Origin: Patescibacteria group bacterium
GTDB lineage: Bacteria > Patescibacteriota > Patescibacteriia > UBA11705 > DATKZF01
Reading direction: 5' to 3'
NCBI GenBank assembly: GCA_049319825.1
Contig: JBMORT010000006.1
Coordinates: forward strand, 80,012-144,011
Length of the DNA stretch: 64,000 nt
The translations under genes and the position numbers were made by a program. Under the pieces are notes generated by a model. That model made no database searches, was not told where the DNA came from, and saw only the letters and a list, made by a program, of their open reading frames with translations. Positions 3,678-64,000 of the stretch are shown piece after piece. The number at the start of each line of letters is the position of its first letter. The stretch's first letter is position 1.

Positions 3678-4442
3678 ATGAAATTTATTCTAGGACAAAA
3701 AAAGGAAATGACTCAGATTTACGATGATAGCGGAAACCTGGTGCCGGTAACCAAATTAGCTGCCGGTCCTTGCTTTGTGTCCCAGATAAAAACCATTGAA
3801 AAAGATGGTTATCAGGCGGTTCAAGTAGCTTTTTTGCCAAAGAAAAAGGGAACCAACAGCCAAAAAGGCCATTTTAAAAATATCGAAGGAGATTTTTATC
3901 AATTTGTCAGAGAATTTCGGGTGCCGGAAAAATCCGAACTGGAAAAAATGACACTTGGCCAAAAGATAACCGCCATTGAATTCGATAAGGGAGAAATCGT
4001 TAACGTAGCGGGGGTTTCTAAAGGAAAAGGATTTCAAGGCGTGGTAAAAAGACACGGTTTTGGTGGATCATTAGCTACTCACGGCCATAAAGATCAAAAA
4101 AGAATGCCCGGCTCGATCGCCGCTGGCGGTCCGGCGCGAGTTTTTAAAGGTACGCGGATGGGGGGGAGAACGGGAATGGATAATGTTACTGTAAAAAACG
4201 CTCAAGTTGTTGATATCGATGAAGCCAACGGTTATATTTATGTTAAAGGGGCTTTGCCGGGCGCTCGAAACGGTTTGATTATAATCACCAATAATTCGGA
4301 ATTTAAGGTATTAACAGAGGAAAAGTCAGCTCCCGCGGCCAAAGCAGAAAAATCAGAACCAGAAAAAGTTGAGGCCACGGCCGAGCCTAAAGTCGGAGCG
4401 CAAGCTGAAGCTAACAAACAGGCGGCCGAAGACAAAAAATAA
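3678..4442 (+). CDS. rplC: 50S ribosomal protein L3 with a C-terminal Ala/Lys/Glu-rich extension
   Basis: L3 signature (GVSKGKGFQGVVKRHGF, GSIAAGG); about 40 extra C-terminal residues. Confidence 0.92.
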   Translation: MKFILGQKKEMTQIYDDSGNLVPVTKLAAGPCFVSQIKTIEKDGYQAVQVAFLPKKKGTNSQKGHFKNIEGDFYQFVREFRVPEKSELEKMTLGQKITAIEFDKGEIVNVAGVSKGKGFQGVVKRHGFGGSLATHGHKDQKRMPGSIAAGGPARVFKGTRMGGRTGMDNVTVKNAQVVDIDEANGYIYVKGALPGARNGLIIITNNSEFKVLTEEKSAPAAKAEKSEPEKVEATAEPKVGAQAEANKQAAEDKK

Positions 4443-26472: not shown

Positions 26473-26545
26473 CAAGCGATGCTAATATACCTGCCTGCCG
26501 CCTGCCTGACGGCAGTCAGGGCAGGCAGGTATATTAGCATCGATG
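26473..26545. promoter_or_regulatory. Large palindromic element with two outward-facing promoter-like arms, between the DHH-like gene and valS
   Basis: A 23-bp perfect inverted repeat (CGATGCTAATATACCTGCCTGCC / GGCAGGCAGGTATATTAGCATCG). The right arm abuts the valS ATG. Confidence 0.5.
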
Positions 26546-30439: not shown

Positions 30440-30517
30440 AGTTTACGGATTATTACGGATATTACGGAAAAAAAATTAGTATAATTAGTATTCATTCGTA
30501 TATTAGCATCGATACAT

Positions 30518-49829: not shown

Positions 49830-49935
49830 AGTTGACCCCGATGCTAATATACGAATTGATACTAATGATACTAATGATACTAATATCGCTTTATTCGTAT
49901 AATTCGCATGCATTCGTATATTCGCATCGCTTGCT

Positions 49936-61534: not shown

Positions 61535-63505
61535 ATGCTTGTCGACCAATTGAAAAATTTAAATTCGGAGCCTGATGGCAAGAAAAAAATCGCCACCGCG
61601 CTCGGACGAGCGGTTATTGGTTTTATTCGAGTTTTGCCAACTTTTTTTGTCGTACTAGCCATCTCGTTGGTAATGGCGATCGTGACCGTGGCTGTTTTAT
61701 TATTGCCTTATTTTTCCAGCATAAAATCAATATACACGGACACGCACGCGGCCGTGGAAAATTTAAAATTGGCTCAGATTGAATTATTGAATCGCGACTT
61801 CACCGAGGCCAAGGCTCCGCTAGAGCAGGCTAAGTCCAGATTTGAAAGAGCGCAAAAAACTTTGGCGCCGCTTAAAAACAGTTATTATTCCAGAATTTAC
61901 TATATTGATCAGCAGCTTTTGGGAATTGACGATTTGCTGGAGATCGGAATTCAAATATCAGATTCATTGATCGCCGCCAATCAGCTTGGTTTGGAATTTA
62001 CCGATATTATTGAAAATCAAAATTTAAAATTTTCTCAGCTGTCACGGGCGGATAAACATGAAATTTTGGGCGCGCTCTATGATGCCGGACCGCAGCTGGA
62101 AAAAATACAGAGTAATTTGAATATCGCCACGACCCGGTTAAAAGATTTTAATGACCGGCCCATGTTTGCTCTAATTAAAAACGCGGCTCAACCGATTGAA
62201 GAAAATTTGCCCAAATTCCAGCCGATTTTTGAAAATATCGCCGTATACGGCAAGGCGTTGCCTGAGCTGGCCGGTTATCAAAAACAAATGAACTATTTGT
62301 TTTTGCTTCAAAACAATGATGAATTGCGACCGGGTGGCGGATTTATCGGTACGTATGGCGTGATTCAAGTAAAAGACGCGGATTTTGTGGATTTTTTCAC
62401 AGATAATATTTATAAACTTGACCGACTGGCAGAAGGCGTTTTGAAGGTCGAACCGCCAAAGCCCGTAAAAGAAGAGCTTAAGCAAAATTATTGGTATATG
62501 CGCGATGCCAATTGGTGGCATGATTTTCCAAGGTCAGCGGCCAATGTCGAGTGGTTCTACCAGGCTGAAAACGGACCGATTAAGCAAATTGACGGAGTGA
62601 TCGCCATCACTCAGACTTTCATCGAAAGTTTGATTTCCGTCACCGGCCCGATAACGGTTGACGGCATAACATTTACCAGAGAAAATTTTACCGATCAGCT
62701 TCAATTTGAAGTGGAAAAAGGGTATGAGCTGGCCGGAATCGAGGAAGAACAAAGAAAAGAAATAATCAGACCGTTGGCTGAACAGATCATTTCGAAAATT
62801 ATGTCTCTGCCGAGGTCAGAGTGGTTAAAATTGTTTGATTTGATCGATCAAAATATTGATGAAAAGCAAGTATTGTTTTACGCGAAAGATAAAAATTTGC
62901 AATCGGAGTTATCCAATATCGGCTGGACCGGGGAAGCGTACATGGGCGATGACGATTATTTGGCTGTAGTCGATGCCAATCTAGCGGCCTTGAAGACTGA
63001 TTCGGTGATGGTCAGAGATTATGAATATCGGCTCGAAGAAAAAAATGACGGGCTTTATGCCAATGTCCATCTGACATATGAGAATCTCGGACTGTTCACC
63101 TGGAAAACGACACGCTATCGCACCTATAATCGAATATATGTTCCGGCCGGCAGCCAGCTGATCAGCTATCGACAAGGTGGACGATTATTGGATATCAATA
63201 AAATTGAGGTTTTCGAAGAGCTGGGTAAACAAGTTTTTGGGCATTTTTTCATGATTGAGCCCAAGGCGACGGAAACGATTGATGTCGCTTATAAGCTGCC
63301 GGATAAGGTGGCCCAGCAGCTCCGAGAGGATGAATATCAATTGGTAATTCAAAAGCAACCGGGTTTGGATCATGCCGGCTTGAAAGTGGAAATGATTTTT
63401 ATCAAGCCGATATCAGCGGTCAATGAAAATTTGGAAAAATTCGGCCAGACAGTGAAGTCTGCCGGCGAGCTGAGAGAAGATATGGAGTTTAAAGTGGAAT
63501 TTTAG
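61535..63505 (+). CDS. DUF4012 domain-containing membrane protein
   Basis: N-terminal TM; LRPGGGFIGTYG signature of DUF4012. Confidence 0.75.
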   Translation: MLVDQLKNLNSEPDGKKKIATALGRAVIGFIRVLPTFFVVLAISLVMAIVTVAVLLLPYFSSIKSIYTDTHAAVENLKLAQIELLNRDFTEAKAPLEQAKSRFERAQKTLAPLKNSYYSRIYYIDQQLLGIDDLLEIGIQISDSLIAANQLGLEFTDIIENQNLKFSQLSRADKHEILGALYDAGPQLEKIQSNLNIATTRLKDFNDRPMFALIKNAAQPIEENLPKFQPIFENIAVYGKALPELAGYQKQMNYLFLLQNNDELRPGGGFIGTYGVIQVKDADFVDFFTDNIYKLDRLAEGVLKVEPPKPVKEELKQNYWYMRDANWWHDFPRSAANVEWFYQAENGPIKQIDGVIAITQTFIESLISVTGPITVDGITFTRENFTDQLQFEVEKGYELAGIEEEQRKEIIRPLAEQIISKIMSLPRSEWLKLFDLIDQNIDEKQVLFYAKDKNLQSELSNIGWTGEAYMGDDDYLAVVDANLAALKTDSVMVRDYEYRLEEKNDGLYANVHLTYENLGLFTWKTTRYRTYNRIYVPAGSQLISYRQGGRLLDINKIEVFEELGKQVFGHFFMIEPKATETIDVAYKLPDKVAQQLREDEYQLVIQKQPGLDHAGLKVEMIFIKPISAVNENLEKFGQTVKSAGELREDMEFKVEF

Positions 63506-63554
63506 TCGAATGAAAAAGAAATGATGAAATAAACAGGATAATGATCAAAATATG

Positions 63555-63579
63555 CGTCCCCGTCAGGGGACGTTTTTTA
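63555..63579 (+). terminator. Intrinsic terminator
   Basis: CGTCCCCG-tca-GGGGACG followed by T6. Confidence 0.65.
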
Positions 63580-63580
63580 T

Positions 63581-63665
63581 GCCGGCCATGGGCGCGCGGT
63601 GCGCGCGTAGGGGCAGGTCGCGACCGGCCCCTACCATCCGCCGCGGCGGATGCGCCATGGCCGGC
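63581..63665. repeat. GC-rich (~80% GC) nested palindromic element
   Basis: Outer 11-bp inverted repeat GCCGGCCATGG/CCATGGCCGGC encloses three internal perfect palindromes. Confidence 0.8.
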
Positions 63666-63705
63666 AATTTGTGAATTGCACGGGAATTTGATAAAATCTT
63701 TTTGT

Positions 63706-64000
63706 ATGAAGTTCACCCACCTCCACGTCCACAGCCACTACAGCCTGCTCGACGGATTGGCGAAAATCGACGATCTGATCGAAAAGGCGAAAAATGACGG
63801 CATGACCGCCCTGGCTTTGACAGATCACGGCGTCATGTACGGCGCCATTGAATTTTATCAAAAGTGCTCGGCCGCTGGCATTAAACCCATTATCGGTGTT
63901 GAGGCTTATATCGCTTCCAATGGTCGAAAAGATAAAAATTCCGTTAGCGGCAATCAGCGTTACCATGTGATATTGCTGGCGCAAAATGAGGCCGGTTACA
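63706..64000 (+). CDS. dnaE: DNA polymerase III alpha subunit, N-terminal PHP domain (3'-truncated by the window edge)
   Basis: MKFTHLHVHSHYSLLDG...LALTDHGVMYGAIEFY. Confidence 0.85.
   Translation, partial: MKFTHLHVHSHYSLLDGLAKIDDLIEKAKNDGMTALALTDHGVMYGAIEFYQKCSAAGIKPIIGVEAYIASNGRKDKNSVSGNQRYHVILLAQNEAGY

Follow-up and report, generated by a model that had tools for sequence, protein, structure and literature searches.

A double-foot REP within a GC-rich hairpin composite between a terminator and dnaE in a Patescibacteria genome

Repetitive extragenic palindromes (REPs) are tied to REP-associated tyrosine transposases (RAYTs). The closest described relatives of the element reported here are the REPs of TnpA_REP subclass 2.4, equivalent to RAYT group 4, which are 'double foot' REPs with a 5' GT[AG]G and a 3' C[TC]AC (Quentin et al. 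2018, BMC Genomics 19:475, PMC6006769). RAYT group 4 is low-copy, with flanking 16-mers that occur ~14 times per replicon (PMC5581495). In E. coli, binding by the RAYT requires the hairpin and the GTAG foot on single-stranded DNA, and CT is cleaved on either side (PMC3479197). We identified an element with such a REP at its centre at positions 63580–63666 of a 64-kb window (the whole stretch of DNA analyzed, 64,000 nucleotides of contig JBMORT010000006.1), which derives from an NCBI metagenome-assembled genome (MAG) labelled Patescibacteria group bacterium. The element lies between a gene for a DUF4012 protein and dnaE, and consists of three abutting hairpins enclosed by a 12-bp perfect inverted repeat. 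The core hairpin is, with high confidence, a member of the known dispersed, RAYT-linked REP family. For the composite as a whole, the probable explanation is an insertion into a permissive spacer, selfish or neutral and centred on the REP, with no role as a regulatory device of dnaE.

The core shares with the subclass 2.4 REPs a 5' GT[AG]G foot, the complementary C[TC]AC at the 3' end and a long GC-rich hairpin, and its family is likewise dispersed, apparently low in copy number per genome and scattered across phyla. However, the description of subclass 2.4 names Cyanobacteria, Bacteroidetes and 'various phyla', and Patescibacteria are not mentioned (PMC6006769). In addition, the REP in the window is the middle arm of a four-way junction with non-REP side hairpins and terminal inverted repeats, and no RAYT gene is visible in the 64-kb window.

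The GTAG REP families are also similar (Di Nocera et al. 2013, PMC3733652). They have a palindromic unit of 20–40 bp with a GTAG tag, lie downstream of a coding region between co-directional open reading frames, form composites that fold into larger structures, contain G-T pairs in their stems and include intragenic in-frame copies. However, classical GTAG REPs carry an unpaired tag at one end only, whereas the tag of the window core is mirrored, and classical REPs number more than 100 per genome, compared with one copy in 64 kb here. Bacterial interspersed mosaic elements (BIMEs) contain several alternating REPs with defined linkers, whereas the composite has one REP among three hairpins. REPINs (REP doublets forming hairpins) resemble it as non-autonomous hairpin units tied to a single-copy RAYT that are inherited vertically and persist for a long time at orthologous positions (Bertels & Rainey 2011, PMC3116915). 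However, a REPIN has two inverted REPs at its ends and a spacer, in contrast to the one symmetric central REP and the arms of unrelated sequence found here. The cyanobacterial SDRs that Elhai and co-workers described in 2008 are said to be palindromic units of ~20–30 nt found in unrelated contexts, in genes and nested in other repeats; they reportedly form a different sequence family from the window REP, and a RAYT linkage is said not to have been claimed for them.

The core hairpin belongs to a dispersed, RAYT-linked REP family

Positions 63607–63634 read GTAG-GGGCaGGTCG/CGACCgGCCC-CTAC, with both feet as in subclass 2.4. The arms GTAGGGGCaGGTCG and CGACCgGCCCCTAC pair at 13 of 14 positions, the exception being an A/G mismatch. 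The middle hairpin of a homologous composite in a relative (locus L079), nearly unchanged from that of the window, guided the design of a degenerate probe, GTAGGGNCNGGTCGCGACCNGNCCNTAC, which matched at least 120 metagenome contigs and 7 viral contigs. The family comprises at least 137 copies in at least 127 metagenomic or viral contigs that have unrelated flanks and GC contents of 0.32–0.66. Up to three copies occur per contig among the matches listed, and two contigs of one MAG, MKWU01, also carry copies. The consensus is GTAGGG-N-C-N-GGTCGCGACC-N-G-N-CC-N-TAC, and the perfect palindrome GTAGGGACAGGTCGCGACCTGTCCCTAC is the commonest form (83 copies among the matches listed).

Hairpin pairing is maintained across the copies. 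Among 135 listed copies, positions 7 and 22, which are free in the search pattern, form a Watson-Crick pair in 130 and use three pair types (shuffle mean 90.5, maximum 105), and positions 9 and 20, also free, do so in 132 with all four pair types (shuffle maximum 104). The foot position 4/25 is paired in just 109 of the 135. The 64-kb window contains one copy of the REP and each 22-kb locus of a relative one, and a scan of the window and the relatives' loci for GTRG-footed or GC-rich palindromes recovered only the element itself. A literal sequence search of papers returned nothing relevant.

The family is linked to RAYT-like genes of the Y1 (HuH) transposase type. By tblastn, such a gene lies at or adjoins the REP in about 19 loci among the listed matches. 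Fourteen of the listed REP copies are in frame with it, 34–90 nt past the PNHxH motif and in two different reading frames, and in four contigs (L125, L108, L093 and L124) REP copies also flank the RAYT-like gene in a REPtron-like arrangement. The proteins are about 180–195 aa in length and carry the motifs NH[FIV]H, WQ and YIxNNP, a size and motif set like that of the subclass 2.4 proteins. Their best family match is NCBIfam NF047646, the REP-associated tyrosine transposase (E 7.7e-19, under the curated cut-off), whereas Pfam Y1_Tnp is weak or absent, and a PDB sequence search with a RAYT-like protein gave no match. We found 1120 homologues of the RAYT-like proteins, and among the named ones many are labelled Patescibacteria or RayT. 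In the literature searched, no paper was found that connects this REP/RAYT family with Patescibacteria.

Several further observations concern copies of the REP. One RAYT-like gene (L112, 316–343) carries a second in-frame REP near the N-terminus (…CFGEIVGTGRDLSLPKMVLNEFG…) besides the one at the usual HuH-Y loop position, so insertion within the RAYT-like gene is not limited to one site. Another GTAG-footed palindrome, GTAGGGTGGATAAGCGGTCACGCATCCACCCTAC, similar in stem and loop to the REP of E. coli (GGATAAGGCGTTCACGCCGCATCC), occurs near the 28-mer REP in several contigs (L126 ~870–905, L132 ~1090–1125 and L180 ~3400). Two contigs (L116 and L196) consist entirely of a fold-back, with the 28-bp REP at the centre of a perfect inverted repeat of 1949 nt in one and 2659 nt in the other; most probably these are chimeras that the palindrome nucleated during assembly or amplification. 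Two Logan contigs stop exactly at the 3' end of the REP (L001 at 4093–4119 and L217 at 2177–2204). The first of these (SRR32167788), whose upstream gene is identical to that of the window, reads a perfect A..T hairpin where the window has the A..G mismatch; the difference could stem from strain variation, from an artefact induced by the hairpin or from a heterogeneous population.

Architecture and copy number of the composite

The coordinates of the element and of its boundaries are given in Table 1. A sequence-only reading of the window had described an 11-bp inverted repeat around three internal palindromes. All of these are present. However, the perfect outer repeat is really 12 bp long, the 11 bp being its inner part (GCCGGCCATGG, 63581–63591, and CCATGGCCGGC, 63655–63665), and the palindrome given as CGCGCG-gtg-CGCGCG is side hairpin 1 read one base shifted. 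The description of a GC-rich element between a terminator and dnaE was also correct, with the terminator on the left and the dnaE start on the right. The element contains the most GC-rich 60-mer stretch in the window, with a GC content of 0.83 compared with 0.443 window-wide.

Table 1. Features of the composite and its boundaries (window positions)
Feature	Sequence	Position	Strand	Remark
Left outer arm	TGCCGGCCATGG	63580–63591	.	Contains GCCGGC, found once in the collapsed or empty site of L218
Side hairpin 1	GCGCGC-ggt-GCGCGC	63592–63606	.	Homologue in L079, GCGCTGCG/CGCAGCGC, on the opposite REP side relative to the flanks
Core hairpin 2	GTAGGGGC-aGGTCGCGACCg-GCCCCTAC	63607–63634	.	28-bp 'double-foot' GTAG REP, GTAGGGGCaGGTCGCGACCgGCCCCTAC
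Side hairpin 3	CATCCGCCGCGGCGGATG	63635–63652	.	Perfect 18-bp palindrome
Right outer arm	CCATGGCCGGCA	63655–63666	.	Diverged remnant persists in L213 (CATGATAGCCGGG)
Intrinsic terminator of the DUF4012 gene	Stem GCGTCCCC/GGGGACGT, loop GTCA (hairpin 63554–63573), then TTTTTT	63554–63579	+	Terminator scan
dnaE promoter-like site	TTGTGA, 17 nt, TAAAAT, upstream TG	63669–63697	+	Promoter scan; predicted; right boundary of the insertion site
dnaE start (PHP domain)	ATG at 63706	63706–64000	+	Pfam PHP, E 6.8e-34

The three hairpins are joined by linkers of 0–2 nt, so that the minimum free energy (MFE) fold is a four-way junction. RNA folding had been proposed as a check on the element, and the junction is highly stable, at -68.4 kcal/mol on each strand (z -5.3 and -6.1), with none of 200 shuffles equally stable. 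The DNA fold has -43.4 kcal/mol (z -6.1). An assembly artefact was considered and rejected because independent assemblies agree. The Logan assembly L001 runs from the upstream gene into the element, and in four independent assemblies of one relative (L079–L082) a homologous composite is contiguous with dnaE.

A search for multiple copies, another check proposed, gave different answers for the composite and for its core. The core has its at least 137 copies elsewhere, whereas the composite occurs once in the 64-kb window and has no second copy in ~65 kb of relatives' DNA beyond the orthologous site. The outer arm, hairpin 2 and hairpin 3 have no further copies in the window, and neither side hairpins nor outer arms were found beside any other of the 137 listed REP copies. 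A search of GTDB representative genomes for GCCGGCCATGG-N45-75-CCATGGCCGGC gave 77 matches, which we dismissed as chance, since they fall in high-GC Proteobacteria, Actinobacteria and the like and have unrelated, mostly coding interiors. A BIME has at least two REPs of one family in alternating orientation; here GCGCGC..GCGCGC and CATCCGCC..GGCGGATG are footless. As the side hairpins and arms lack GTAG feet and are found nowhere else, the composite is not a classical REP cluster or BIME.

The setting of REPs within larger inverted repeats is more general. Counting enclosing base pairs generically in MFE folds did not separate REP sites from shuffled controls, and perfect inverted repeats were tested in its place. 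Of 119 listed REP copies, 20 are enclosed by a non-adjacent perfect inverted repeat of at least 9 bp, compared with 1.9% of control positions, and an adjacent perfect flanking inverted repeat of at least 8 bp is present at 8% of listed copies compared with 0.04% of controls. Several of these cases resemble REPs sitting in terminator loops. An adjacent side hairpin accompanies just 8 of 122 listed copies (3% of control positions), and the full three-hairpin form is rare across the REP family. Two other contigs, L086 and L098, give the same four-way-junction fold from unrelated arm sequences.

These comparisons leave room for a reading in which the four-way-junction composite is a recurrent, structure-defined unit in this Patescibacteria clade, either a new class of REP-nucleated mobile element or a domesticated cruciform element. 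In the first version the element would grow by copying flanking DNA in inverted form, via template switching at the hairpin; in the second it would be kept, and able to flip, immediately upstream of a leaderless dnaE promoter. This reading draws on the architecture shared by L086 and L098, on the enclosure of REPs by locus-specific inverted repeats about nine times more often than controls, and on the better sequence conservation of the composite than of the neighbouring terminator, and we regard it as quite improbable.

The window also contains a second small inverted-repeat family, with ends CGATGCTAATATAC, at 26477–26542, 49839–49929 and 30498–30511. One copy, just upstream of a gene start, has perfect 23-bp arms and a 20-nt spacer; a second has 37-nt arms with 81% complementarity, and there is a solo end. 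The pattern of this family has 6 matches in the window compared with 0.41 expected, and it has a MITE-like look (MITE, miniature inverted-repeat transposable element).

Position outside the dnaE transcription unit and states of the orthologous site

The gene upstream of the element (61535–63505) encodes a DUF4012 protein and is preceded by glycosyltransferase genes. Its terminator forms the left boundary of the insertion site and lies outside the element. Relatives were found via the DUF4012 protein and the contigs that carry it, and are roughly equidistant from one another, with 51–66% identity. All orthologous loci have a hairpin and T-run at the same place, although the stem sequences differ, and full-length DnaE is called in them. 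To the right of the element, the predicted promoter block ATTTG[TA]G...TTTG[ACG]TAAAAT is conserved in the window and in five orthologous loci (L079, L213, L218, L085 and L215). Where this block has the ATTTGTG form, in four lineages (the window, L079, L213 and L218), the predicted -10 TAAAAT ends 8 nt ahead of the dnaE ATG. Since the -10 ends so close to the start codon, the dnaE mRNA is probably leaderless in this clade. No Shine-Dalgarno sequence was seen at the dnaE start of these four lineages (window 63669–63708; L079 12114–12154; L213; L218).

The element lies downstream of the terminator T-run and upstream of the predicted conserved promoter, and so is not part of a dnaE leader. It ends at 63666 and the predicted -35 starts at 63669, which places it outside the transcribed 5' untranslated region. 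The element occupies the gap between two transcription units, outside that of dnaE. A role as oriC or dif was likewise considered and rejected, as cumulative GC skew climbs monotonically across the window and no supporting motif is present.

This position bears directly on the suggestion, also made in the sequence-only reading, that the element is a stable RNA structure in the dnaE leader. More broadly, a structured RNA could be a leader or riboswitch-like element of dnaE, a small RNA or a tRNA-like cloverleaf. The fold is cloverleaf-like and very stable, and both mismatches in the L079 copy are G-T pairs on the gene-sense strand, although the probability that two G-T pairs fall on one strand by chance is ~0.25. 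However, seven related lineages share the promoter whose -35 the element precedes, and relatives carry the element in either orientation or not at all; the flip between orthologs turns the RNA sequence into its complement. Neither ARAGORN nor Rfam at gathering score gave a match in the element region, and a permissive Rfam search gave noise-level matches only, the best being Fungi_SRP (21 bits) and the REP325-derived naRNA4 (17 bits, E 0.95). To catch spurious reading frames annotated over further copies of the composite, the open-frame translations of the element were joined and searched against proteins, and nothing scored at E <= 1. We consider a structured RNA hardly credible at this site.

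The orthologous sites are found in filled, decayed and uninserted states. L079–L082 (DUF4012 identity 59–60%) are filled, in the order GCCGGCCATCATG, CATCC hairpin, REP, GCGC hairpin, CATGATGGCTGGC, and L217 (62%) is filled in the same order, its contig stopping at the REP. The terminal arms of L079 are 13 bp long with one G-T pair. Hairpin 3 is conserved in L079 (CATCCGC-tgatg-GCGGAT) and in L217 (ACATCCGCC-att-GGCGGATGT), in both cases on the other side of the REP. L213 (58%) retains a remnant, ...ATTTG-ATATCATGATAGCCGGG-ATTTGTG..., and L218–L220 (59%) have a remnant or collapsed site, ...ATTTG-CCGGC-ATTTGTG.... In L085 (60–61%) and L215 (51–52%) the site is uninserted, and the T-run is followed directly by ATTTGAG....

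The hairpin order is reversed in the window compared with L079, while the flanks are colinear. The reverse complement of the window element is identical to L079 at 71 of 90 columns (score 95), compared with 66 of 95 in the same orientation (score 63); for the interior alone the values are 52 of 66 flipped and 46 of 70 unflipped. The better flipped alignment between colinear flanks indicates that the composite is of one origin, or one family, and has since been flipped. The simplest route for the flip of the 63-bp interior would be recombination, or template switching during replication, between the perfect outer arms.

The inverted interior could alternatively reflect an invertible switch or other site-specific recombination substrate, with the outer repeats as recombinase sites and an interior that would flip to control the genes beside it, or an attachment- or dif-like site as the sequence-only reading had proposed. 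Two Logan contigs end exactly at the REP, one with a hybrid perfect hairpin, which could hint at heterogeneity within the population. However, assemblies commonly break off at perfect palindromes, and the REP is the centre of whole fold-back contigs. All four independent assemblies of the L079 type show one orientation, and inversion is seen only between species. A 63-bp interior is very short for recombinase-mediated inversion, and no promoter-like site lies inside it. Around the site are glycosyltransferase genes, the DUF4012 gene and dnaE, with no recombinase gene within ~6 kb upstream, and the element has no resemblance to an attachment or dif-like site. A role of this kind is very unlikely.

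The ends of the filled and empty sites also invite comparison with MITEs. Like these, the composite is small and non-coding, has terminal inverted repeats of 11–13 bp in an AT-rich intergenic target, and is found with filled and empty orthologous sites and a possible short duplication. A GCCGGC stands at each end of the element and a single one in L218; ATTTG borders the remnants of L218 and L213, and L085 and L215 each have a single copy of it. The composite of 85 bp could be a MITE moved by a DDE-type transposase via its terminal repeats and leaving a short target duplication, with the REP as a passenger or a later nested insertion, and the opposite orientations in the window and L079 would then be independent insertions at one AT-rich hot spot. 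The terminal inverted repeats are perfect (GCCGGCCATGG in the window, GCCGGCCATCATG in L079), the filled and uninserted sites are compatible with an ATTTG or GCCGGC duplication, other palindromic inserts occur in the same spacer of L085 and L215, and the CGATGCTAATATAC family is present in the window. However, the window, the relatives' loci and the surroundings of the 137 listed REPs yielded no further arms or side hairpins, and searching GTDB representative genomes for the exact terminal repeats produced chance matches alone. In filled sites the left ATTTG is degenerate (TTATG, TTTTG, ATATG), which leaves the target duplication uncertain, and no known parent transposase has ends matching the GCCGGCCAT type. 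We judge an origin as a MITE to be unlikely.

The region holds other variable inserts. L085 (6895–7105) and L215 (12635–12750), which lack the GC-rich element, have AT-rich palindromic inserts (ATTACGAATA... and ATACGAGATTACAGAT...) between the -10 and the dnaE ATG, which marks the spacer as an insertion hot spot for palindromes. L085 (2304–2663) and L213 (9708–9911) also have, amid their glycosyltransferase genes, small genes of the 23S rRNA intervening-sequence protein or bAvd type (PF05635). These small genes are absent from the window and constitute another variable insert within an otherwise syntenic block.

Origin and significance of the composite

The suggestion that the element is selfish, MITE-like or REP-like, holds for the core, which is a dispersed, RAYT-linked REP with filled, decayed and uninserted loci and short flanking repeats. 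It does not extend to the composite, of which no second copy was seen in the window or in ~65 kb of relatives' DNA. We favour an insertion, selfish or neutral, with the following history. In the ancestor of a small Patescibacteria clade, the REP, two GC-rich companion hairpins and terminal inverted repeats of 11–13 bp would have been assembled at one spot. This would have been the only dispensable DNA between the two co-directional genes, past the T-run and ahead of the -35 of the dnaE promoter. By comparison of the loci, the composite was later kept in the window, L079 and L217, with an end-for-end flip in one branch, and decayed elsewhere, leaving arm remnants in L213 and a solo GCCGGC in L218.

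How the core was mobilised can be pictured from the E. coli enzyme. Single-stranded DNA at the replication fork would allow the hairpins to extrude, and the RAYT would bind the hairpin and the GTAG foot and cut and religate at a neighbouring CT. In a double-foot REP, the 3' CTAC may provide this CT in cis on both strands. The insertion would have no function for the host.

A number of points weigh against this history. The side hairpins and outer arms lack GTAG feet and are present nowhere else in the data. Terminal inverted repeats and target duplications are not expected of RAYT or IS200-type transposition, and the MITE-like ends of the composite, with terminal inverted repeats and possible GCCGGC or ATTTG duplications, are not predicted by it. 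Neither a RAYT gene, by tblastn, nor a second REP is found in the 64-kb window or in ~65 kb of the relatives' loci; the REP of the window may thus be an orphan, and any activity in the source genome is putative. The GTDB genome scan used a pattern other than that of the metagenome scan, so that per-genome copy numbers do not follow from it. Finally, identity of the composite is ~79% between genomes that have completely diverged in the terminator stem and the promoter spacer. Judged by these alignments, sequence-specific constraint, or more recent and repeated insertion, would fit this identity better than neutral inheritance.

The same conservation, at ~60% identity of the neighbouring protein and with terminator stem and promoter spacer sequences that are not conserved, would suit a domesticated structural element, in which the host keeps the four-way-junction or cruciform DNA, or its read-through RNA, upstream of the dnaE promoter. 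Such an element could act as a transcriptional insulator or back-up terminator, could stabilise the upstream mRNA at its 3' end, or could be bound by a nucleoid protein or a junction-binding protein. In E. coli, REPs and BIMEs bind IHF, gyrase and HU/naRNA. Three lineages hold the composite at the same locus, the fold is very stable on both strands, and independence of orientation suits a symmetric DNA structure. The permissive Rfam match to naRNA4 points in the same direction, but it is at noise level and far under the gathering score. However, four related lineages that share gene order and promoter lack the element, have it decayed or never had it, and every ortholog already has an ordinary intrinsic terminator ahead of the site. 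The window and L079 copies have stem mismatches, as decay predicts. We regard domestication as rather unlikely, and an insertion without a role in dnaE regulation as the probable explanation.

With the core identified, a GC-rich oddity in an AT-rich Patescibacteria genome is explained as a REP-type repeat, and the element should not be annotated as a dnaE regulator or an RNA gene. There is also a practical consequence for the reading of MAGs at such sites, as the perfect 28-bp palindrome breaks metagenome assemblies or makes them fold back (two Logan contig ends and two fold-backs). Possibly new are the occurrence in a Patescibacteria host, the inversion between orthologs and the composite with its four-way junction. 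The RAYT-like homologues labelled Patescibacteria, together with a REP of the same family in this Patescibacteria genome, bear on the range of the family. The flip at orthologous loci, the filled, decayed and uninserted states within one clade and the REPs inside larger inverted repeats bear on how REPs insert and how palindromes grow.

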